Notes under the pieces: generated by a model
What the model was told of the DNA's origin: nothing
Seen by the model: only the letters and a program-made list of their open reading frames with translations
Database searches by the model: none
Program-made: the position numbers and the translations under genes
DNA from: a virus
Lineage: Duplodnaviria > Caudoviricetes
Length of the DNA: 64,000 nt
Virus record (IMG/VR): IMGVR_UViG_3300049595_005065
Direction: 5' to 3' (one strand)
Shown here: piece after piece, positions 3,229 through 62,733 of the stretch
Position numbering within the stretch: position 1 is the stretch's first letter
How the letters are laid out: every line of letters begins with the position of its first letter

Positions 3229-3513
3229 ATGCGCTACCAGCTCAGACCCCCAGGCGACACGTTACGGTGGCTGTTTGCCCAAGACGGCCAGCCGCACGTA
3301 TTGCCGTTTCTCCCCGCGGAGGAAAACCGGAGTCTGGTCTGCGCGCAGCTGATCGGTGGTGAAGTTCTCGCTGAGGTTGTTCTCTCCGGAGAGCACCTCA
3401 CAGAAGTCTGTGGTCCGGGTTTTCCTCTGGGCCGACTGTATTTCCAGATTTCCAAATCTGCGCTATACAGTGTGTGTCCGGAGTTAACCCCGGCTACCTT
3501 CGGGGAGAGCTAG
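3229..3513 (+). CDS. hypothetical protein
   Basis: 94-aa ORF in operon context. Confidence 0.6.
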   Translation: MRYQLRPPGDTLRWLFAQDGQPHVLPFLPAEENRSLVCAQLIGGEVLAEVVLSGEHLTEVCGPGFPLGRLYFQISKSALYSVCPELTPATFGES

Positions 3514-3517
3514 GTTC

Positions 3518-3559
3518 GGGGCGTCAAGCCCCGGGCTGACGCTCTTCTTTAGCTATCAG
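3518..3559 (+). promoter_or_regulatory. GC hairpin + pyrimidine run + TTAGCTATCAG element
   Basis: CGGGGC/GCCCCG stem followed by TTAGCTATCAG at 3549-3559. The same architecture recurs at about 20609, 22007, 22490 and 26879 (minus strand). Confidence 0.5.
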
Positions 3560-3566
3560 GGCTTTT

Positions 3567-4529
3567 ATGAGCACGGCACAATACGCCGACCCGTCTCAAG
3601 TGCGCATGGAAAACGGCCGTTCTCTGGCCGACCTGATGCGCCGCGGGCCCGGCGGTTTAAGAGGTGTTGTTGTGGCCAAGTCGACGCCCGGTGGTTTGCC
3701 GGTCAACTACAACCCTCACGACCGCAGCCACCTCGAGGTCCACGTTGAGCCCGAGGGCGGCAACGCCGTGCTGACCATGGACCGGGTCACCTCTGAAGCC
3801 GTGGCGCAGGCGCTGGCCGTGGCAAACCAGGCTGTACAGGGAAACGACATTGATTCCATCCGGGAGCGCGCTGCCTTGGCATTCGAAGAACTGGCAAAGA
3901 TATCTAAGTCGGGCGTGAAGCGGGTGCCGGTCAAGAAAACGGCCGCGACCCCTCCGCCGCGCGAGTTCCGCGACGATGCCCCCGAAGTTACCGAGGAGCG
4001 CGAGATGCTCGAGGAGCTGGAGCAGGAGGTCGAAGCGCTGCGCAGTTTCGAGCAGCCCTTTCCGCGCCCCGCCGCTCCGCCCATCGAGAAGATCGACCGC
4101 GGCTACAGCCCCATGGCCGCTTTTGGCCTGAAGAAAGGTCCCATGGCTACGACCAGCGCGCCCGTTGTCGCCAAAAGTTCCACCAGCGGTCCGCCCCAGA
4201 AGCTCGTTTATTTCGAGAAGGAGGGCATCGGTACGGTTCCGGCCTTTTTCCACGACGTGCTCATTCACGTGGCGAGGCCCGAGCCGGACAGCCCCGAGGA
4301 ATCGGGATTTATCGTGCTGGTGTACGACGTGCGTTTTGAACAGTCGGCTGCCCGCTGGTTTCCGCCCAGTAACGATCCGTACGCGCGCCCTTGGGCCGCC
4401 AAGGTGAGCGACGACAACCGGCTGTATCTTGTTCATACCACGGGATTTCAGTACATTTACGATTCGCGGGAGTACTGTGTCCTGCGCGTGGAAAAAGCAC
4501 TCTGGGCGCCGGAAGGATCCGACGAATGA
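3567..4529 (+). CDS. hypothetical protein
   Basis: 320-aa ORF with a Pro/Glu-rich central linker. Confidence 0.8.
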   Translation: MSTAQYADPSQVRMENGRSLADLMRRGPGGLRGVVVAKSTPGGLPVNYNPHDRSHLEVHVEPEGGNAVLTMDRVTSEAVAQALAVANQAVQGNDIDSIRERAALAFEELAKISKSGVKRVPVKKTAATPPPREFRDDAPEVTEEREMLEELEQEVEALRSFEQPFPRPAAPPIEKIDRGYSPMAAFGLKKGPMATTSAPVVAKSSTSGPPQKLVYFEKEGIGTVPAFFHDVLIHVARPEPDSPEESGFIVLVYDVRFEQSAARWFPPSNDPYARPWAAKVSDDNRLYLVHTTGFQYIYDSREYCVLRVEKALWAPEGSDE

Positions 4530-52977: not shown

Positions 52978-53691
52978 ATGCTGCGCCCGCAAGTCTACTG
53001 GCACCTCTGGCATCCCAATGGCTCGAACATCGGGCAGTTGCTGCTGGCTGAACAGGCTCTGGCGCTTGAGGAATCGGGCCTGGCCGAGGCCGCCGATGTG
53101 CATCTCTCGGTGGTCGGCCCGCCACTCGTTGTAGACGACCCGTACACGTGCGCCAAAGACGCCAACTACCCGAGCGGTCCTGGGTTTGCCGCGGATTATC
53201 CTTGGCTCAAGCATGTGCGCGTCCACGGCCCCGAGGCCGACGGGCTGTATGAGGGCGTGACCTTGGAAGCCCTGTGGTTAGCCGCCCAGACCTCAGATCC
53301 AAAGACCCCTTTTCTCTATTTCCACGGCAAGGGCGCGTCCAACATGACCCGCTGCCGCAATCGCTGGCGTCGGTTTATGGAGCACTTCTGCATCGCACGA
53401 TGGCGCACGGCTGTGGCCGTGCTCGAGCAATACGACACGTACGGCACCTTGTGGTACCCTCATCCGCCCCACTACTCTGGCAATTTTTGGTGGGCAACGG
53501 CGGGTTACCTGGCTAGTTTGTACCACCCCATTCACGACCAGCACCCCGAAAACGTCCAGGGGCGCTTCAAGTACGAAGCCTGGTTGTGCGCCAATCGACC
53601 GCGTTCTTTCAACGCGTATGACGACAAGCAAGACCATTACGCTGTGCCGTTGCCGCCCCCCTCGGAATGTATGGCGCGTATGCCAAACTGA
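52978..53691 (+). CDS. glycosyltransferase-associated protein (putative)
   Basis: YEGVTL, FLYFHGKG, HYSGNFWWA, GRFKYEAWL. Confidence 0.6.
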   Translation: MLRPQVYWHLWHPNGSNIGQLLLAEQALALEESGLAEAADVHLSVVGPPLVVDDPYTCAKDANYPSGPGFAADYPWLKHVRVHGPEADGLYEGVTLEALWLAAQTSDPKTPFLYFHGKGASNMTRCRNRWRRFMEHFCIARWRTAVAVLEQYDTYGTLWYPHPPHYSGNFWWATAGYLASLYHPIHDQHPENVQGRFKYEAWLCANRPRSFNAYDDKQDHYAVPLPPPSECMARMPN

Positions 53692-54154
53692 GCCGCGACG
53701 TTACCTTTGTTGCGTAGCCAGCGCGGTAGTTGCGCGATATTTCGGAGCCGCATAGACTTTTCGAAATGGTTCATACCCCACACGGAGGGCACACGCGGGA
53801 AAGTCGCAGGGAGGCGGTTCGACATCGGCTGCATTCGCTTCATGCGGCCGCGCCGAGTCGAAAAGAGTACTTGCGAAAGCGGTCTTCCGAACCGGGCCGT
53901 CTTTGCACTCCATCGGGCAGCCGGGGTGCCGGGATGCTGCGCAAAGATATCTTTGCGCGCTTAACGCTGGTAGCTGGGTTCCTAGCGCCGTCCGAGCGCG
54001 TCCTTCGCCCCTACGCAACACGAGCACAAGCGGGACACGAGCGGTCCTGCTGCCAGCGCCCAGCCCGCCTCGCACAAATAACCGCACAACGACGAGGGGC
54101 GACCCTCGCGCAAGCGCCCAAGGGACTGGGCGCGTTCTTTGGGGCACGGAAACT

Positions 54155-54601
54155 ATGCACGGGCAGAACCTTCCGCGCACGCCGCAAATGGTCGGCCAGG
54201 CGGGCGCGCACCACGCGGCAGCGCAGTTACTGAAACACGGGATTATTTCAGCGTTTCCCAACGTTGACGTGGGTTACGACCTGCTGACTGACGCAGGAGG
54301 TACGCTGCGGCGCGTCCAGGTAAAAACAGAGCTGGTTGGCGTGAAGGGGCGGCCCGAGTTGCGGCAGCTGCGATATAGTCTGCGTCGTCGCAAAGGCAAG
54401 AAATTGTCTCCCGAGGACACGACAAATCTGGACAAGCGCTACACAACAGACATGATTGACGCGATGATTTTTGTGACCTTCCGTCACGATACCTTGTTCA
54501 TCGTACCGGCAGCGGAAATCGATTTCACGCGGGATTGGATTTATTACTCGCAACTGCACCTCTGGGAAAACGCCTGGTGGGCGCTGACACAAGGAACGTG
54601 A
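54155..54601 (+). CDS. PD-(D/E)XK endonuclease (free-standing, intron-associated type)
   Basis: GYDLLTD...RRVQVKT, Y....IDAMIFV. Confidence 0.75.
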   Translation: MHGQNLPRTPQMVGQAGAHHAAAQLLKHGIISAFPNVDVGYDLLTDAGGTLRRVQVKTELVGVKGRPELRQLRYSLRRRKGKKLSPEDTTNLDKRYTTDMIDAMIFVTFRHDTLFIVPAAEIDFTRDWIYYSQLHLWENAWWALTQGT

Positions 54602-54605
54602 AGGT

Positions 54606-56180
54606 ATGCGCATCCTGGCGCTGACTGTATCCGACCGGTTGTTCTTTTCCGGGACGCTGGCGGCGGTGAATTCGCTGCTGCACTACACCCGAGATTGGCC
54701 CGCGGACTGGCAGTTGGACATCGCCGTCGTGTCGAGCGGCCATTACAACCAGGCCCTCACCGAGCAGCAGCGCGAGCTGCTCAAGCACGAGCGCATCCGG
54801 GTCTATGCGCACGAGTTCTTCCAGGCGCCGCAACGCGTACCCGGCGCGTGGCAGCTCAAGGCCTACGCGGCGCATGACCTGTCCTGTGAATATGATTTTC
54901 TGGTCGGGTTCGATTCCGATTTGGTGTTTGCCAGCGACGTGCGCGACGTGATTGCGCAGTGCCAGGCGGACGGGAAGTTTCGGGGCGGCAAGGACGGCAA
55001 CGGCGTTCGTTACGGCAAGGAATACGCGCCGTACGGCATCGCAGCGGGCGAGACCGGGCCGTACATGTCGACCTCGTGTTACTTTTGCCCGCTCACGCCG
55101 GAAAATCGCGAAATCCTGGCCGACTGGGCGCTCAAGACGAACCAGGCGGCATACGGCCCGCAGGCAGAGAAGCGCTATGTCGGCCACGGCGACCAGGGCG
55201 TGCTCAACTCGGTGATCTTCGCCCGCACGCGCAGCCAGAACGTGGAGCTGTTGCCCAACGAGACCTGGAGCCAGCACTGGCGTTACGAGAGCGACGTGGT
55301 GGCCTGGGATGGCGCGCAGTTGATCAACTACACCGCCCGAAAGTTGCCCATGCGCGCGCTGCATTGCGGCGGCAGCGACAAGTTTTGGGCGGCAGCTCAC
55401 GCCGAAAAGCGGCTGGAGAAAGGCCAGAGCCAGCGCTGGGGTTATGCGCATTTCTTGCGCTTCTTGCATTTTGGCGCGCTTTCGGTCTGGAAACGTGACC
55501 CGCTCCAGTACATCCCGGCCGAGCAGCAGCACCTGTTTCGGGACGCACTGAACTACTGGCCGCTCATGTTTGCATTGGCGCCCGAAGTGGCGGATTGCTG
55601 GGGCGAGCTTTCTCCGGCGTGGCTGTCGCGGGCGATCGAAGCAGGCAACATTCACCGGATGATGTCCTTGCATGCCGACGGTTCAGGCTCGATGAACCAG
55701 TACATCTCGCTGGCGCGGCGCGTGAAACACGGCGGCACGCTTGTCGAGGTCGGCTCGTACCTGGGCGGCTCCGCCGTCACTGTGGCCGCGGCGACGCGCG
55801 ACCGGCAGCTGCGCGTGATTTCGGTTGAGTCCTTTGCGGGGAATCTCAACAACATGGTGGACGGGCACCCGCTGCCGTCAATCAACAGCTACGTGCGGCA
55901 GGTTAAAACCACGTTTCCGTTTCTGAATGTCGACGCTGTTCCCTTGCCCGGCGAGCTGGCCGTATCGCAGTTTGCCGACGGGTCGCTTGACATAGTTTTT
56001 ATTGATGGCGACCATAGCACGCCCGCGGTGCTGCGCGACATCGATGTCTGGTGGCCGAAGGTTGCGCCGGGCGGAATCCTGGCCGGTGACGACTACGACT
56101 GGAAGACTGTCGCGGAAGCAGTGGCGCAGCGGTTCCCGACCGCAGAGCATCAGAGCTGTGTGTGGTGGACACAAAAATGA
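54606..56180 (+). CDS. GT8-like glycosyltransferase fused to class I SAM methyltransferase
   Basis: FDSDLVF and HGDQGVLN in the N-terminal part; VEVGSYLGGS, IVFIDGDH and GGILAGDDY in the C-terminal part. Confidence 0.8.
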   Translation: MRILALTVSDRLFFSGTLAAVNSLLHYTRDWPADWQLDIAVVSSGHYNQALTEQQRELLKHERIRVYAHEFFQAPQRVPGAWQLKAYAAHDLSCEYDFLVGFDSDLVFASDVRDVIAQCQADGKFRGGKDGNGVRYGKEYAPYGIAAGETGPYMSTSCYFCPLTPENREILADWALKTNQAAYGPQAEKRYVGHGDQGVLNSVIFARTRSQNVELLPNETWSQHWRYESDVVAWDGAQLINYTARKLPMRALHCGGSDKFWAAAHAEKRLEKGQSQRWGYAHFLRFLHFGALSVWKRDPLQYIPAEQQHLFRDALNYWPLMFALAPEVADCWGELSPAWLSRAIEAGNIHRMMSLHADGSGSMNQYISLARRVKHGGTLVEVGSYLGGSAVTVAAATRDRQLRVISVESFAGNLNNMVDGHPLPSINSYVRQVKTTFPFLNVDAVPLPGELAVSQFADGSLDIVFIDGDHSTPAVLRDIDVWWPKVAPGGILAGDDYDWKTVAEAVAQRFPTAEHQSCVWWTQK

Positions 56181-57163
56181 GTGACGGCGCGCGAAAGATA
56201 ATCTTCCGCAACTGGCAGAGCCCGGGCGACATCGTGATGCTGCTCTTCGCCATCAAGAGCCTTCACGACAGCTACCCCGGGCAGTTCATCACGGACGTCC
56301 GCTGCCCGGCCCGCGAGATCTTCGAGGGCTCGCCGTACATCACGCCGCTTAGCGAGAACGACCCCGGCGTGGTGATGCTCCAGGCCGAGTATCCGACAAT
56401 CCACCGGAGCAACACGCACCCGGTGCGGTTCTCCACGGCCTTCGCCGAGCACATCGCGCAGATGCTCAACCTGCGCATCCAGCCGTGCCAGTTTCATAGC
56501 GTAATCGAGATCACGCCCGCGGAGCAGGGCTGGCTGAGCGCCGTCCACGAGCTGCTGGGCCGCGACGTGCCGTACTGGATTATCAACGCCGGGCACAAGA
56601 GCGACTTCACGGCCAAGGCCTGGGACTTCGAACGCTACCAGGCGCTGGTCGACCGGTTTCCCGGTGTCTGGTTCGTCCAGGTCGGCGCCAAGGAGCACAC
56701 CCACCCGGAACTCAAGGGTTCGAACCTGCTCAACTTCGTTGGCAAGACCGACACCCGGCAGCTGATCCGCCTGGTCTGGCACTCCTTCGGCGTGATCTCC
56801 GGCGTGAGCTTCCCGATGCACCTAGCCTATGCTGTGCCGCCTCATCCGCGGTTCAACCGGAAGAGCCGGGCCAACATCACGATCGCCGGGGGCCGCGAGC
56901 CCGCGCACTGGGAAGAGGGGCCCAACCACCATTACCTGCACACCTGCGGCATGCTCTCCTGCTGCGACATGGGCGGCTGCTGGAAGAGTCGCGTGGTGCC
57001 GCTGGACGACGGCGATAGCAAGAACAACAGCCTGTGCGTCGCGCCGGTGATGCTGCCTACAGGGCAGTGGATTGGCCGCTGCATGGAGATGATCACCGTA
57101 GATGACGTGGCGAGCATCATCGAGAAATACATGACCAACCTGGAGTACGAACCCAAATCGTGA
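56177..57163 (+). CDS. GT9 (heptosyltransferase-like) glycosyltransferase
   Basis: SPGDIVML, AKAW, FVQVG, NFVGKTDTRQL, SFPMHLA, Cys-rich C-terminus. Confidence 0.75.
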   Translation: MSDGARKIIFRNWQSPGDIVMLLFAIKSLHDSYPGQFITDVRCPAREIFEGSPYITPLSENDPGVVMLQAEYPTIHRSNTHPVRFSTAFAEHIAQMLNLRIQPCQFHSVIEITPAEQGWLSAVHELLGRDVPYWIINAGHKSDFTAKAWDFERYQALVDRFPGVWFVQVGAKEHTHPELKGSNLLNFVGKTDTRQLIRLVWHSFGVISGVSFPMHLAYAVPPHPRFNRKSRANITIAGGREPAHWEEGPNHHYLHTCGMLSCCDMGGCWKSRVVPLDDGDSKNNSLCVAPVMLPTGQWIGRCMEMITVDDVASIIEKYMTNLEYEPKS

Positions 57164-57420
57164 GTGACTTTAGCTGGACGACCGCCCTGACGGTGTTCGT
57201 CGTGTACGTGTTCTTTGACATTCTCTACGCTCTGTACGTTTTGTGCGTCAGTCGGAAGCAGGCTTTTACTTCCAGCGCGATCAGCGCTGTTCTGTACAGC
57301 CTGGGGGCTTACGGCGTTCGAAGCTACATGGACAACCCCTGGTATCTGATCCCTTTGGCGTGCGGCGCCTTCCTGGGCACTTATATCGCCGTTAAATACA
57401 TGGGAGACCTGCACGCATGA
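57160..57420 (+). CDS. small multi-pass membrane protein
   Basis: Three hydrophobic helices. Confidence 0.65.
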   Translation: MSDFSWTTALTVFVVYVFFDILYALYVLCVSRKQAFTSSAISAVLYSLGAYGVRSYMDNPWYLIPLACGAFLGTYIAVKYMGDLHA

Positions 57421-57839
57421 CGCCCCGCCGCGACACCACAATCGCTTTAGATTTTGACTGCACGTTCACCTCGGACATCGAATTTTGGCGGCTGTTTGTG
57501 CGGCTCTGCGCCAAACGGGGCCACAAGGTCGTTCTGGTCACGGCGCGCTTCGACACGATCGAGAACCGCGTCCTGGTCGCCGACGTGCTGGGCCGCGCGA
57601 CTTTTGAGCTTCTTTCGGGCGCAGTATTTACCGGCCGCCAACCCAAACGCCCCGTCGCTGAAGAGCAGGGCTTCAGGATCGACATCTGGATCGACGACCT
57701 GCCGGAGTTTGTGGGAGACGCCAGTCTTGAGCTGCTTGAGACGATTAAGTCGCAGCAGTCGATCTTTGAGACCCTGCCCGTTGTTTCCATGGGCGCCGTG
57801 GACCCAAACGCCGTCTGGGAGCCCAACTGTGAACAATGA
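57417..57839 (+). CDS. HAD-superfamily hydrolase
   Basis: IALDFDCTF, LVTAR, IWIDD. Confidence 0.75.
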   Translation: MTPRRDTTIALDFDCTFTSDIEFWRLFVRLCAKRGHKVVLVTARFDTIENRVLVADVLGRATFELLSGAVFTGRQPKRPVAEEQGFRIDIWIDDLPEFVGDASLELLETIKSQQSIFETLPVVSMGAVDPNAVWEPNCEQ

Positions 57840-58155
57840 GACTGTCTATTTGCTCTTAGCCTTCGCGCTGGGCTACCTGACCGGCCGGGCCGACTCCCTG
57901 TACCGTGCGCTGCGGGACCGCTACGCCCCGCCGCCCAAGGCCGGGTTCTTTGCCGACGCCCCGCGGGCCGAGCGCGAGCTTGCGCCGCGGCAGGCTCCAA
58001 AGATATCTATTGACGAGCGAAAGGTCGTCTCGGAAATCAGCACGGCGGGCATCGAGCGGTCCGAGCAGGCCGCCCAGCAGATTGGGACGAAAACCGTGCA
58101 GTCTGATAACATCGACGCGTCAGTCAGCAAACTGGCGCAACTCAAAGGGAGATAA
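57829..58155 (+). CDS. N-terminally membrane-anchored protein
   Basis: GTG start; YLLLAFALGYLTG TM helix; ends 2 nt before the actin-like gene. Confidence 0.65.
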   Translation: MNNETVYLLLAFALGYLTGRADSLYRALRDRYAPPPKAGFFADAPRAERELAPRQAPKISIDERKVVSEISTAGIERSEQAAQQIGTKTVQSDNIDASVSKLAQLKGR

Positions 58156-58157
58156 TC

Positions 58158-59189
58158 ATGGCCAAGGGTCTCGACGTCGGTACTTCGTTCATCGTGCTCG
58201 CGCAGGACGCCAAGGAGAACACCACGACTAGCACGACGCAGGTCGGGCAGGTCGAGTACAAGGATTTCCGCGACGCGTTTTACGTGATCAAGCCGACGAC
58301 CCCCGTGGCCACGAAGATGATCGAGAAGGGCCTGACCGGGCGAGTCTTCGTGAAGGACGAGGACGGCAGCTTCATCATCCTGGGTAAGGATGCCATCGAG
58401 AAGGCCATCGAGCGCAACGACTCAGCGAAGCGCCCCATGCACAAGGGCGTGGTCAGCGTGAAAGAGAAGGCCGCCCAGCGGGTCCTGGCCTACATCCTCA
58501 AGGAAGTGGCCGGGAAGGCCGCGCAACCCGGCGAGAAGCTCGTGTTTTGCATTCCGGCGCAGCCCGTCGACCAAGAAGACGAAGACTTCGACGTCGGTTA
58601 CCACGAGGACGTCGTCACGCGAATCCTGGGCGAGTGTGGCTACGAGGCCCGGGCGATCAACGAAGCTGAAGCCCTGTGCTACTCGGAGCTGGAGAACGAC
58701 GACTACACCGGGCTGGCGCTCTCCTGCGGCGCCGGAATGGTGAACTGCTGCGTGATGCTCAACGGCGAACCAACCGTGATGTTCTCGACCACCAAGAGCG
58801 GCGACTGGATCGATCGGATGACCGCGGTGGCCACCGGCGAGCCGGACAGCGTCGTTCAGGCCGAGAAGGAGCACGGCGAGTTTACGATCGGCCAGCCCAA
58901 CGCCAGCGCGATCCTTTCGGCCGTCTCAAGCTACTACGAGCGGCTTATCGACTACACGACCAAGCAGCTCGCTGCGGCCATGGCGGGCCACAAGCTGCTC
59001 CCCAAGTTCAAGAATCCACTCCCGGTAGTCATTGCCGGTGGCACCAGCCAAGCCAAGGGCTTTGTGCCACGGTTTCATGAGAAGCTCGTCGAGAACGGCT
59101 TCCCGATCGCGATCAAGGAAGTCCGGCACGCCAAGGATCCGCTCCACGCCGTGGCCCGTGGCTGCCTGGTTGCCGCCAAGATCCTGTGA
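58158..59189 (+). CDS. actin-like ATPase (MreB/ParM/MamK superfamily)
   Basis: Phosphate-1 GLDVGTS, connect-1 NEAEA, phosphate-2 SCGAGMVN, SGDWID, adenosine IAGGTS, connect-2 PLHAVARG. Confidence 0.85.
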   Translation: MAKGLDVGTSFIVLAQDAKENTTTSTTQVGQVEYKDFRDAFYVIKPTTPVATKMIEKGLTGRVFVKDEDGSFIILGKDAIEKAIERNDSAKRPMHKGVVSVKEKAAQRVLAYILKEVAGKAAQPGEKLVFCIPAQPVDQEDEDFDVGYHEDVVTRILGECGYEARAINEAEALCYSELENDDYTGLALSCGAGMVNCCVMLNGEPTVMFSTTKSGDWIDRMTAVATGEPDSVVQAEKEHGEFTIGQPNASAILSAVSSYYERLIDYTTKQLAAAMAGHKLLPKFKNPLPVVIAGGTSQAKGFVPRFHEKLVENGFPIAIKEVRHAKDPLHAVARGCLVAAKIL

Positions 59190-59196
59190 GAGGGAC

Positions 59197-60165
59197 ATGG
59201 AAGACCGTGGTCGGTTGGAGCGCTACTATCGCGCGCTCGAGACGAAGAGCCTCGATCGGCTAGTGGGCTGCTCTTACTATCCGATGTGGCTGCACGGCCG
59301 CAAGGACCGCTGGGTGTACTGCAACCCGAGCATAGCCCGCCACCCCGACGGCGGTTTCGTGTCGCTGGTGCGGTACTCCAGCTGGCCGCGCGTCACGGTG
59401 GTTTACCCGGTCCATTCCGACCTGGTGTTGGCGCGCCTGGACGACGACTACAACGTCGTGTCCATGAAGCCGCTGGCGGAACCAAAAAGACAAGTCGACA
59501 CGTCATTCAAGCAAACTTACGGGCCCGAGGATGCGCGGCTGTTCCGGTTGAAGGGGCGGTGGTACGCCACGGCTACGTTTTTTGACGTGCCCGAGTGCCG
59601 CGTCGACTCCAACGTGTTTGCGCGGATGGGTCTGCTCGAGTTTGACGAGGACTTCAACTGGACGGACCTGACGGTGCTGCCGTGCCCTTTCAAGCAGCAC
59701 GAAAAGAACTGGATGAACATTGAAGGCGAGATGGCGTGGCTTTACTCGGCGCACGACACCCGAGTGGCCCGCTACAACTTTGAGACGCGGCTGCTGGGCT
59801 ACTACTACCCGCAGCCGACGCCGGAAATTATGCAGCACGCCCGAGGTAGTTCGCAACTGATCGACATTGGCAAAAACAGGCTTCTGGGCGTTGTGCATGA
59901 GTCCGTCCAGGAGGTTCCCACGCGGTCCTATATTGGAAGCTACCGCGCGTACAGCCATCGATTTGTGCTTTACTCCCGCGAACCGTTTGAGCTGAAGGCC
60001 GTTTCCGAGCTGTTCCATTTCTTTGCCCCCGGGCACGTCGAATTTGCCGCGGGCCTCGCCGCCGCAGATGCGCGTCTTGTGGTCTCGTTCGGCCACCACG
60101 ACAGCTGGGCCTGGCTGGCGGCCATGAAGCTTGACAACGTGCTTAACGTTCTAAACCCCGTCTAG
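59197..60165 (+). CDS. five-bladed beta-propeller glycoside hydrolase-like protein (GH130-like)
   Basis: CNPSI, GPEDARLF, EKNWM, RGSSQ, EFAAGL. Confidence 0.65.
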   Translation: MEDRGRLERYYRALETKSLDRLVGCSYYPMWLHGRKDRWVYCNPSIARHPDGGFVSLVRYSSWPRVTVVYPVHSDLVLARLDDDYNVVSMKPLAEPKRQVDTSFKQTYGPEDARLFRLKGRWYATATFFDVPECRVDSNVFARMGLLEFDEDFNWTDLTVLPCPFKQHEKNWMNIEGEMAWLYSAHDTRVARYNFETRLLGYYYPQPTPEIMQHARGSSQLIDIGKNRLLGVVHESVQEVPTRSYIGSYRAYSHRFVLYSREPFELKAVSELFHFFAPGHVEFAAGLAAADARLVVSFGHHDSWAWLAAMKLDNVLNVLNPV

Positions 60166-60172
60166 GCGCCTT

Positions 60173-61273
60173 ATGTACGACGTGCTACTGGTTGGCGCCG
60201 GGTTGTTCAGCGCAGTCTTTGCGCGCCAGTGCCTCGACGCAGGGCGCAAGGTGCTGGTCATTGAGCGGCGGGCGCATCCGGGCGGCAACTGCTACACGGA
60301 GCGGCGCAACGGCATCGACGTTCACGTCTACGGGCCGCACATTTTCCATACCAGCAGCGCGCGCATCTGGGATTACGTGCGGCAGTTTGCAAACTTTAAC
60401 AACTTTGTGAACCGGCCCAAGGTTCATTACAACGGCCGCCTGTACTCTTTTCCGATCAACCTGTTCACTCTCTACCAACTTTGGGGTGTTCAGACCCCCG
60501 AGGAGGCCCGGCGCAAGCTGGACGAGGTGCGCGTCCCGATCGAGAACCCGGCCAACCTCGAAGAATGGGTGCTTTCCCAGGTCGGCGAAGAGATCTACGG
60601 CGTGTTTATTCGCGGGTACACGCAAAAGCAGTGGATGCGCGATCCGCGGCAGCTCCCCGCGAGCATTATTCGCCGCCTGCCCATCCGGCTCACCTTCGAC
60701 GACAACTACTTCAACGACACGTTTCAGGGCATCCCCGAAGACGGCTACACGGCCCTGCTGCAACGCTTGCTGGACGGGGCGACGATCGAGCTGGAGCAGG
60801 ATTACTTCGCCGCGCGGGAGGCCTGGGACGCACGAGCGCGGACGGTGGTGTTCACCGGGCGGCTCGACCAGTTTTACGACCACCGGTTCGGGCCGCTCGA
60901 ATACCGCACGCTCCGGTTCGAGCATGAGCAGCACGCCGTCGAGGATTACCAGGGCAACGCGATCGTGAACTACACGGCGGCCGACGTTCCGTATACTCGT
61001 GTCGTTGAGCACAAGCATTTCTCAGGCGCTCGGTCGCCGCTCACGCACATCACGCGCGAGTACCCGGTCGCCTGGGAGCCGCAATCCGTGCCGTACTACC
61101 CGATCTCCGACGCCGCCAACACGGCCAAGTACGAGCAGTACGCCGCGCTGGTCAAGTTGGAAAGGAAACACCTGTTCGGCGGCCGCCTGGCGGAGTACCG
61201 CTACTACGACATGCACCAAGTGATCGGCAGCGCACTGACCGCCGCCGCCAAGTACCTGGAAAACCGCCCATGA
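60173..61273 (+). CDS. glf: UDP-galactopyranose mutase
   Basis: VGAGLFSA, HPGGNCY, HVYGPHIFHT, QGIPEDGYT, YYP, GRLAEYRYYDMHQVI. Confidence 0.95.
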   Translation: MYDVLLVGAGLFSAVFARQCLDAGRKVLVIERRAHPGGNCYTERRNGIDVHVYGPHIFHTSSARIWDYVRQFANFNNFVNRPKVHYNGRLYSFPINLFTLYQLWGVQTPEEARRKLDEVRVPIENPANLEEWVLSQVGEEIYGVFIRGYTQKQWMRDPRQLPASIIRRLPIRLTFDDNYFNDTFQGIPEDGYTALLQRLLDGATIELEQDYFAAREAWDARARTVVFTGRLDQFYDHRFGPLEYRTLRFEHEQHAVEDYQGNAIVNYTAADVPYTRVVEHKHFSGARSPLTHITREYPVAWEPQSVPYYPISDAANTAKYEQYAALVKLERKHLFGGRLAEYRYYDMHQVIGSALTAAAKYLENRP

Positions 61274-62733
61274 TTTACAAGCCCGACGTTCTGCCGGTCT
61301 GCATCACCTACACGGCCGACTTCCAGAAAATGGTGAACCACGCCTGCTCGACGCTGGCGCACCCGAAGATCCAGCTCCATTTGAATCAGGTGACGCTTGA
61401 CGAGAGCTACGAGGGTTTTCGCAGCGCGGGGTGGTTCGAGTGCCTCAAGCGGAAAATGCTGTTCTTCTACGATTTCATGTCGAAGCTGCCTCTCAACGCG
61501 GTGGCCTGCTCGATCGACGGCGACATCCAGTTCTTCGACGCCGACGCGCTGTACAACCTGAAGGACCGCCTCGCACGCTCGTCGCTGTGCTGCTACGGCC
61601 AGGCTGAGCACTGGCTGGAGGAGCCCAACCGCCGCAAGTCGCGCGTAGCGAACGGCGGCTTTTTCATGATGAAAAAAACGCCAGCGGTGATGCGCTGGCT
61701 CAAGACCGTGCTGAGCCAGAATTACACCACGCAGTACCTGGGAGACCAGGAATTTCTCAATCACTTTCTGCAAAAACAACGCGTCCCTTACGTGTTGCTT
61801 CCGCCCCAGCAGTTCATGCACGGCGGCCCCATCGCGGAGAAGACCGAGAACTTTGTCGACCCGGTGCGGCTAGTGATGCACCACGCCACTTGGGCGACGA
61901 ACGTTGACGACAAGCAGAAGCAGATGAACATCGTGCGCGAGCTGTGCAACTTGCCGCCGGTGGACTGGGACAACGTTCAGCTGAAGAACCCGAACGTTGT
62001 GTATTACCTGAACGGTGATTCGCGCGGCCGAATGCCGCCGCTCAAGCACCCCAACGCCCTGGTGCTGGCGCGGTACAACGAAGATCTCTCTTGGGCGGAG
62101 CCGTGGACCGACAAGCTGGACGTGTTCGTCTACAACAAGGGCGCGCCGTATCCGGGCAAACTGAACGCGAACTGGTCCACCCTGCCCAACGTCGGCCGCG
62201 AGGCGCATACCTACCTGACGCACATCATCGACAACTACGACCGGCTGCACGACGTGACGATTTTTCTGCAGGGTCGGATTGACGACTGCCACGCGTACCC
62301 GGCGGACCAGCTCGAGCGGTACATCGCGCCCGCCAAGGAGCACGGATTCAGCGCCAGCCAGTTCATTCTGGTGCGGCCGGAGTACTGGAACGGCATCGAG
62401 TTCATGAAGCTCCAAAAATACGCTCCCCAGGTGCGCAGCGGCGCGCTCAAGCTCTACAAGCCTGGCATGCTTTCCTACATCCGGGAGCACGTTGGAAAGA
62501 TCCCGGTGACCATGGCGATCACCTATTGCGGCTGCTTCGCCGCAAGTCGAGAAGCCATCTGCCGCCACCCGGTGTCTTTCTACGAGCAGCTGCGCAAGAC
62601 CGTTTCGCACCACAGCGGACCGGAAGAGGCGCACTTTCTGGAGCGGCTCTGGGCGTACATTTTCAGCGGCACGGCTTACGTGCCGCAGCTCCTGCGCATT
62701 CCGCCCCAGCACCGAGACAAGTTTCTTTACTGA
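61270..62733 (+). CDS. nucleotide-diphospho-sugar transferase fused to DUF3431-like domain
   Basis: DGDIQF, NGGFF, GDQEFLN; then ARYNEDLSW and LPNVGREAHTYLTHIIDNYD. Confidence 0.75.
   Translation: MIYKPDVLPVCITYTADFQKMVNHACSTLAHPKIQLHLNQVTLDESYEGFRSAGWFECLKRKMLFFYDFMSKLPLNAVACSIDGDIQFFDADALYNLKDRLARSSLCCYGQAEHWLEEPNRRKSRVANGGFFMMKKTPAVMRWLKTVLSQNYTTQYLGDQEFLNHFLQKQRVPYVLLPPQQFMHGGPIAEKTENFVDPVRLVMHHATWATNVDDKQKQMNIVRELCNLPPVDWDNVQLKNPNVVYYLNGDSRGRMPPLKHPNALVLARYNEDLSWAEPWTDKLDVFVYNKGAPYPGKLNANWSTLPNVGREAHTYLTHIIDNYDRLHDVTIFLQGRIDDCHAYPADQLERYIAPAKEHGFSASQFILVRPEYWNGIEFMKLQKYAPQVRSGALKLYKPGMLSYIREHVGKIPVTMAITYCGCFAASREAICRHPVSFYEQLRKTVSHHSGPEEAHFLERLWAYIFSGTAYVPQLLRIPPQHRDKFLY

Follow-up and report, generated by a model that had tools for sequence, protein, structure and literature searches.

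A Volactin-family actin and its predicted membrane-anchored partner in uncultured freshwater jumbo phages: a candidate two-gene cytoskeletal module

Described Actin–Adaptor Systems and the Phage Locus

To our knowledge, phage-built cytoskeletons have been described in two forms, the tubulin spindle formed by PhuZ and a single prophage actin, AlpC. A further candidate is considered here, namely a pair of adjacent genes encoding a Volactin-family actin of 343 amino acids (aa) and a partner of 108 aa, located in a 64,000-nucleotide stretch of a virus of the Caudoviricetes (IMG/VR record IMGVR_UViG_3300049595_005065), the whole of which is referred to as the window. The pair probably constitutes a two-gene cytoskeletal module, in which volactin filaments built by the phage have their ends tethered to the membrane by the co-translated partner. 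Actin–adaptor pairs as such are already known; what is new is a pair that is viral, belongs to the Volactin family and is predicted to be anchored in the membrane. A literature search returned no paper on volactin in phages, and one for phage actin-like proteins led only to reviews of PhuZ and to AlpC/AlpA of prophage CGP3.

The Volactin family was first named in archaea in 2024; the phage actin occurs on no fewer than 229 IMG/VR contigs of phages and in some 1900 protein clusters. In Haloferax volcanii, volactin forms dynamic filaments whose tips touch the membrane and which bridge the cytoplasm, and it is a determinant of cell shape (PMC10869688). The archaeal protein (VolA, HVO_2015), which passes the Pfam profile PF25216 in a control search, and the phage actin belong to this same family at full length; the latter differs in being encoded by phages, where it forms a tight clade at 74–94% identity. 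HVO_2016, the CdpA-like neighbour of VolA, has four transmembrane (TM) segments in contrast to the one short anchor of the phage partner, the two appearing, by description only, to follow a plan of anchor, linker and small C-terminal domain.

Adaptors that bind DNA characterise two further systems. In ParM/ParR/parC, the growing end of ParM has a hydrophobic pocket to which the tail of ParR binds, much as a formin would (PMC5016525). The phage locus resembles it in combining an actin of predicted filament-forming kind with an upstream adaptor whose tail is predicted to occupy the IA/IIA pocket, but the adaptor is putatively anchored and carries no DNA-binding domain, there is no centromere array, and the actin belongs to a family other than ParM. 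AlpC and AlpA, from prophage CGP3 of Corynebacterium glutamicum, are needed for efficient phage DNA replication, AlpA being the DNA-binding component (PMC4446434). There too the genes of a phage-borne actin and of an upstream, actin-binding adaptor are transcribed together; AlpA, however, binds its own promoter, while the partner described here is predicted to be a membrane anchor, the actins belong to different families, and a prophage stands against the lytic-looking jumbo phages of about 200 kb considered here.

MreB and RodZ provide the example of a bacterial actin linked to the membrane via a single-pass protein, and MreB is among the best fold matches of the phage actin. The Pfam score for MreB is nevertheless sub-threshold, no amphipathic membrane-binding helix is seen on the phage actin, and the phage partner has no helix-turn-helix (HTH) domain. 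Its anchor is N-terminal and its predicted binding region C-terminal, the opposite order to RodZ, which binds through an N-terminal cytoplasmic HTH. With the PhuZ spindle the phage pair would share the encoding of a cytoskeletal polymer by a jumbo phage, the fold being that of tubulin in the one case and of actin in the other. A search with the tubulin profile PF00091 found no match in genomes G003, G004 and G005, among them two complete relatives; any cytoskeleton of these phages would be the actin–partner pair. Finally, planctomycete volactin pairs comprise an actin of the same family and an upstream gene ending in ...V...L(A/N)KLK.L..G; they differ in that the adaptors are soluble coiled-coil proteins and the actins are 33–37% identical to the phage one.

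The Actin Gene

The actin gene and its nucleotide-binding motifs are positioned as follows.

58158–59189, plus strand: Volactin-family actin gene (P0001), 343 aa, ATG at 58158, stop at 59189
58170–58187, plus strand: phosphate-1 motif LDVGTS (residues 5–10), with D6 and G8 invariant
58656–58673, plus strand: INEAEA, with the invariant catalytic Glu169, at the start of the hinge helix 169–183, which is one wall of the predicted tail cleft
58719–58745, plus strand: phosphate-2 motif LSCGAGMVN (residues 188–196), with S189 where Asp is usual
59031–59048, plus strand: adenosine-binding motif IAGGTS (residues 292–297), with G294 and G295 invariant

Against the Volactin profile PF25216 the protein scores 210.8 bits (E-value 4.7e-62; curated cut-off 35 bits), residues 1–340 being aligned to model positions 1–321. 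The MreB_Mbl profile reaches 23.6 bits over residues 66–135 only, below its cut-off of 27 bits, the Salactin profile gives a weak, sub-threshold Pfam match, and in a PHROGs search neither the actin nor the partner could be assigned to a family. Kinship with plasmid-type actins (ParM, Alp, AlfA), entertained by a first-pass annotation made from the letters of the window, was not borne out by this assignment. The AlphaFold 2 (AF2) model, built from a 97-sequence alignment, has a predicted local distance difference test value (pLDDT) of 94.9 and a predicted template modelling score (pTM) of 0.91, and consists of two RNase-H-like halves with four subdomains (Foldseek probability 1.00 to BeeR, MamK, MreB and actin). 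The Foldseek top 50 contains BeeR, MamK, many MreB structures, actin/Arp, FtsA and PilM but no sugar kinase, its sole non-filament entry being EutJ at rank 18. Identity to MreB and MamK in the structural alignment is 13–20%, and the family profile searched against the PDB retrieves MamK (E-value 1e-15), BeeR, MreB and FtsA. Family profile and modelled fold together confirm the window protein as an actin-fold ATPase of the filament-forming kind, belonging to the Volactin family.

The full set of actin-fold motifs noticed in the first-pass annotation was recovered, and D6, G8, E169, G191, G193, D216, D219, G294 and G295 are invariant over 97 actin sequences reaching down to 32% identity. The lack of the usual Asp in the phosphate-2 motif (SCGAG), which had also been pointed out, is real: S189 aligns with the corresponding Asp of MamK (DIGAGTTD). 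It is a trait of the whole family, position 189 being Ser in 100% of the close and 98% of the distant members and, because this residue is near-universal, SxGAGxxN is to be read as a family signature rather than a lesion.

Variation on the actin gene is seen among more remote homologs. In P0122 and P0130, which are 44–57% identical to the window actin, the gene contains an intein, which carries a LAGLIDADG homing endonuclease and is inserted after approximately residue 180–205, near the phosphate-2 motif, and matches of about 700 aa of this kind also occur among the relatives. Inteins favour highly conserved, important genes. Distant Volactin-family proteins (P0229, P0153, P0187, P0243, P0249 and P0126) carry N-terminal fusions, and some are tandem double actins; the fused parts comprise an HU domain (over the Pfam cut-off), a ParB-HTH-like region (just under the cut-off) and zinc ribbons of MJ0042 type.

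The Partner Gene

Directly upstream lies the partner gene, whose features, together with the ribosome-binding site of the actin gene, are given below; A1 denotes an alignment of 46 distinct partners (45 loci and the window).

57829–58155, plus strand: partner gene, 108 aa, GTG start, TAA stop at 58153–58155, GGGAG 7 nt upstream of the GTG
57841–57885, plus strand: N-terminal hydrophobic anchor, residues 5–19, in predicted helix 3–32
57940–57951, plus strand: (S/G)FF juxtamembrane motif in the variable disordered linker, at least 70% conserved in A1
58000–58152, plus strand: predicted C-terminal actin-binding region, residues 58–108, from A1 conservation and complex contacts
58144–58151, plus strand: Shine-Dalgarno sequence of the actin gene, AAAGGGAG, within the last codons of the partner

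The start of the partner gene overlaps the end of the gene before it (stop at 57837–57839), and 2 bases lie between its stop and the actin ATG at 58158. The coordinates, the 2-nt spacing and the coupling of the two genes given in the first-pass annotation agree with the start, stop and Shine-Dalgarno positions, by which translational coupling of the actin to the partner is supported.

Modelled alone by AF2, the partner has a helix at residues 3–32 (pLDDT 86–96), a disordered middle and short helices at 79–84 and 95–106. Exactly one clear 19-residue hydrophobic segment is present in 40 of the 46 distinct partners. The flank on its N-side is short (mean 6 residues, with 0.35 Lys/Arg) and the 15 residues after it contain 1.8 Lys/Arg; because these charges are richer after the segment, the positive-inside rule suggests a topology with the N-terminus out and the C-terminus in. 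A membrane anchor of this orientation is accordingly predicted for the partner. In the window copy the hydrophobic run is about 15 residues long, with a Kyte–Doolittle mean of 1.65 over 15 aa and 1.17 over 19 aa. The earlier description of the partner as a single-TM protein fits most of its relatives; for the window copy, because its own stretch is short, that label rests mainly on them.

Along A1, the hydrophobic N-terminus ends in GY..GR and is followed by the (S/G)FF motif, the variable linker and, over the last 50 or so residues, a conserved stretch with the consensus IxIDxxKFV.x.xT.G...LG...D.I..SVSKLAQLKG. The terminal helix 95–106, which reads ...SVSKLAQLKGR in the window, is conserved, as the first reading of the locus had surmised. 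A Pfam scan of all 46 partners gave chance-level matches only, with no DNA-binding domain in the partner, and an Atlas feature search with it returned scores of at most 0.85, unnamed clusters and no family.

The Predicted Complex

A complex of the actin (alignment A2) with partner residues 56–108 (alignment A1), a fragment that leaves the (S/G)FF motif outside, was predicted with a score of 0.62, against 0.00 for the best control. This mark is reached by 58 of 80 solved complexes and by 2 of 110 mismatched pairs, counts that provide a rough calibration since custom alignments were used. Three runs share at least 84% of their contacts, with partner pLDDT of at least 71. The contacts of lowest error link partner helix 95–106 with actin residues 175–183, in the hinge helix after the catalytic Glu, 202–204, in the hairpin of subdomain IIA, and 338–342, in the C-terminal helix back to IA. 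By homology, we equate this site with the hydrophobic cleft of actin, between subdomains 1 and 3, in which target proteins bind. The remainder of the modelled tail runs over subdomain IB and the outer face of IA, bringing the interface to approximately 130 contacts, which beyond the cleft involve actin residues 29–37, 56–68, 101–117 and 145–156. Cleft residues have a mean conservation of 0.90 in the phage clade and 0.40 in distant relatives.

On this model the partner tail would occupy the IA/IIA cleft of the actin, where ParR docks on ParM. A structure prediction of the actin with the partner C-terminus was the check proposed alongside the original idea of a filament-type actin with an anchored partner, and its outcome favours binding; the idea itself gains support from the Volactin assignment, from the BeeR, MamK and MreB folds and from this modelled tail contact.

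Pairing, Neighbourhood and Selection

The partner gene stands upstream of the actin gene in all 82 related loci analysed, whose GC content extends from 30 to 62%. Among the 46 distinct partner genes, 35 end 1–5 nt before the actin start, and about 10 loci contain a small extra insert between the two. The pairing is far above chance, and the pair aside, no neighbour is constant across loci.

Two neighbourhood types recur. In GC-rich relatives a HAD-like gene, an 86-aa membrane protein (TM86) and PhoH are found upstream of the pair. In AT-rich relatives RuvB, with or without thioredoxin, lies directly upstream and trypsin/S8 proteases lie downstream; in locus L063, RuvB overlaps the partner start by 4 nt. 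Loci in which RuvB adjoins the adaptor, among the AT-rich relatives and the nearest outgroup, include the following.

L063, 4792–5999: RuvB-adaptor locus
L025, 4401–5977: RuvB-adaptor locus
L117, 2253–3994: RuvB-adaptor locus, with a RuvA_C-like gene before RuvB

This coupling to RuvB hints at a link with DNA metabolism in the AT-rich relatives. The glycan genes of the window recur in few related loci.

Across loci with GC content of 0.30–0.62 the actin is 74–94% identical, with GC content at third codon positions (GC3) ranging from 0.86 to 0.16. The nonsynonymous divergence (dN) of the actin is 0.04–0.20 with synonymous divergence (dS) at or past saturation, and that of the partner is 0.2–0.86. 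Because synonymous sites are saturated and codon usage is fully shifted, recent transfer of the actin is unlikely. When window open reading frames (ORFs) of at least 80 aa were compared with the complete 229-kb relative G003 (E-value below 1e-8), only six matched; the best conserved of them is the actin, with 77% identity across 340 residues, the next full-length match being PhoH at 44%. These comparisons of sequence indicate that the actin has been under strong purifying selection for a long time and over its whole length, as expected for a polymer with many interfaces.

The Tail Motif Outside the Phage Clade

In the closest outgroup, P0121, which is 52% identical and comes from a phage contig that also carries rIIB, the arrangement of RuvB, a TM adaptor of the same plan and the actin, in that order, is retained. 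In P0123 (46%) the upstream protein, of 150 aa, ends in ...AIDKLRQLKKAKG and is followed by a glycosyltransferase of family 9 (GT9). Beyond phages, 80 of the 201 Planctomycetota genomes sampled encode proteins that score over the PF25216 cut-off, frequently two paralogs in tandem, and the planctomycete members read are 33–37% identical to the phage actin clade. The acidic homolog P0148 comes from a Planctomycetia metagenome-assembled genome (MAG) and is not haloarchaeal. Planctomycete volactins outscore the phage proteins on PF25216, at up to 312 bits.

A tail profile made from the C-terminal region of the phage partners was searched against 1758 ORFs from 33 planctomycete volactin loci. Of the 12 top-ranked ORFs, 8 immediately precede the actin gene, and in each of these the match falls at the very C-terminus; taken singly the matches are weak (E-value 0.04–9), but a simple binomial calculation puts their enrichment at about 1e-11. 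Read by eye, the planctomycete adaptors end in ...ESN(I/L)..V.VK..KAGGV...LAKLK.L..G, the phage counterpart being ...D.I..SV.KL(A/K).(L/M)KG. They are soluble coiled-coil proteins of 230–450 aa, with a hydrophobic segment in none of 25. The tail thus has the appearance of a volactin-binding element common to phage and bacterial adaptors, whereas the N-terminal part seems to be interchangeable and would, in these phages, be a membrane anchor.

A further volactin, on the 485-kb huge phage LR745208 (locus L084), is preceded by an ORF at 3334–3957 without a hydrophobic segment, which overlaps the actin start by 20 nt and has neighbours without a Pfam family. The end of this ORF, ...DAMGALKAVRKK, resembles the tail motif by eye only, and BLASTP gave no alignment between it and the window partner.

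Proposed Mechanism and Alternatives

The following sequence of events is proposed. The 343-aa actin, judging from its family and fold, would form dynamic, ATP-dependent filaments inside the infected cell, while the 108-aa partner, as hydropathy and charge suggest, would enter the host inner membrane via its N-terminal helix and leave its C-terminus in the cytoplasm. Its disordered linker would carry a tail of about 50 residues that folds onto the actin, with the last helix modelled in the IA/IIA hydrophobic cleft. As this cleft is the barbed-end site used by ParR, the partner would most likely tether, and perhaps nucleate, filament ends at the membrane. Filaments would cross the cytoplasm from membrane anchor points, as for Haloferax volactin, and the best guess is that they would organise replication or assembly spatially in a jumbo phage without PhuZ-type tubulin. 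If this is true, the pair would represent a second, widespread type of viral cytoskeleton and a minimal two-protein system (343 aa and 108 aa) for volactin filament nucleation and tethering, with a membrane anchor in place of a DNA-binding adaptor; the shared tail motif would suggest how volactin-binding factors of haloarchaea and planctomycetes work. A bolder version, possible but doubtful, is that freshwater jumbo phages own an ancient actin cytoskeleton, in which a formin-like anchored adaptor nucleates dynamic volactin filaments and these place the zone of replication or assembly, a functional counterpart of PhuZ in phages that lack tubulin, with a tail code shared by phages, planctomycetes and haloarchaea and interchangeable cargo modules (anchor, coiled coil or fused DNA-binding domain).

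Several points weigh against a tethered filament system. Polymerisation, binding and membrane insertion are all inferred for the phage proteins, and no cargo was identified for the filaments. The short hydrophobic run of the window partner makes membrane spanning less certain in this copy, and Ser in place of Asp in the phosphate-2 motif may mean that hydrolysis differs from that of classical actins. The complex score, in addition to its rough calibration, is the model's own confidence and may echo solved actin–peptide or ParM–ParR complexes. The modelled interface also extends over IB and outer IA, which fits monomer sequestration as well as end-binding. On a rival reading the partner is a regulator, whose tail would hold back monomers or close off filament ends at the membrane in a thymosin- or WH2-like manner and so time or restrict polymerisation. 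A large interface wrapping IA and IB, a tail that is disordered when alone and coupled translation that would yield roughly 1:1 synthesis are all in keeping with it; a conserved membrane anchor is nevertheless not needed for a pure inhibitor, planctomycete relatives put the same tail on long coiled coils resembling cargo adaptors, and ParR promotes growth from the same site, which leaves regulation of this kind quite unlikely. The filaments could alternatively be directed at the host, reshaping or enlarging the cell, blocking division or disturbing MreB/FtsA-dependent envelope synthesis in favour of a large virion. Volactin does shape Haloferax cells, the adaptor is putatively a membrane protein, and the pair lies in an envelope-glycan gene block in this subclade, with GT9 or GT9-like neighbours in three phage lineages. 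Such a role is considered unlikely, given that glycan genes are not conserved neighbours, that 13–20% identity to MreB and MamK makes co-polymerisation improbable, and that a near-invariant actin across very different GC contents, and probably different hosts, fits a self-contained phage function better.

A ParMRC-like segregation or positioning of DNA had been suggested in the first-pass annotation, with a dispersed palindrome, AGATATCT, as a distributed centromere recognised via a further adaptor. The palindrome is indeed abundant, with 21 sites against 0.17 expected between 1309 and 63015 of the window, within and between genes at spacings of 0.7–6 kb and often extended to AAAGATATCTTT; in the same direction point the fusion of distant Volactin relatives to HU or to a ParB-HTH-like region, the DNA-binding adaptor used by prophage AlpC and the coupling of the pair to RuvB in AT-rich relatives. 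No link between these sites and the actin was found, however, and no centromere-like tandem array is present in 53500–61500 beside the operon, where one 22-nt match is at chance level. The site within the partner gene (58001–58008) codes for KISI in a motif that reads differently among relatives. When tail profile and pattern were run against all ORFs of the window and of the complete 229-kb relative, the membrane partner was the only tail-bearing protein, so that the search for a DNA-binding adaptor in the window and in that relative ended empty; the partner itself is hydrophobically anchored, as far as its sequence predicts, and lacks a DNA-binding domain. The distributed centromere was thus not borne out and segregation is very unlikely here, the DNA-linked roles suggested by the HU and ParB-HTH-like fusions appearing to exist elsewhere in the family and not visibly at this locus. 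The remaining alternative, that the protein is a non-polymerising enzyme or chaperone with an actin fold (a sugar kinase, or Hsp70/EutJ-like) serving the neighbouring glycan genes, draws on its place between glycosyltransferases and a UDP-galactopyranose mutase, on the missing phosphate-2 Asp and on EutJ among the fold matches. This possibility, raised at the outset as what would overturn a cytoskeletal role, is rejected as highly improbable, for the Volactin family forms filaments in vivo, the top fold and profile matches (BeeR, MamK, MreB) are all filament formers, the 50 best structures include no sugar kinase, glycan neighbours are absent from most relatives, and strong conservation over the whole length fits a polymer. 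A phage-built volactin filament tethered through its partner is the interpretation that is retained.

Source Genome and Relatives

The window is a densely packed, largely plus-strand stretch of an uncultured phage in which tail-fibre, helicase and PhoH genes are present. A sequencing-run search located the 64-kb stretch in lake and freshwater DNA metagenomes only, with no RNA dataset listed among the runs, and a protein search placed the actin on a contig of 208,363 bp; the source is an uncultured lake phage of about 208 kb, of lytic-looking jumbo-phage type. Relatives of the actin number 1934 in the protein database, the best 120 being 76–94% identical and on contigs of up to about 229 kb, and relatives occur on at least 229 IMG/VR contigs. 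Of three IMG/VR relatives opened, two are rated complete (205 kb and 229 kb), the larger having terminal repeats. GenBank phages contain just two distant copies (35%), both in uncultured huge phages.

In the cellular genome collection the close actin clade is limited to three short MAG contigs, labelled Chitinophagia, Ferruginibacter and Saccharibacteria, which we take to be binned phage contigs. A planctomycete host, assumed in the first-pass annotation, is not supported by these labels or by the 30–62% GC range of the relatives; distant planctomycete homologs of the actin are its sole backing.

Neighbouring Genes

Within the window the actin gene lies between glycosyltransferase genes and a UDP-galactopyranose mutase gene, and a scan of 53500–61500 for promoters and terminators gave results at chance level. 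Three distinct phage lineages have a GT9 (heptosyltransferase-like) gene 1–2 genes away from volactin; of these matches, which are listed here, two are below the Pfam cut-off.

Window, 56162–57163: GT9(-like) gene
L085, 2511–3515: GT9(-like) gene
L119, 5023–6159: GT9(-like) gene

The GT9-like proteins of the window and L085 have no pairwise similarity, and BLASTP found none between the window protein and the one adjoining the volactin of LR756511. A possible third component is the 86-aa multi-helix membrane protein encoded at 57160–57420 of the window, which belongs to no family and is 62–87% identical in 23 GC-rich relatives, where its gene typically lies 0.7–1.7 kb upstream of the actin.

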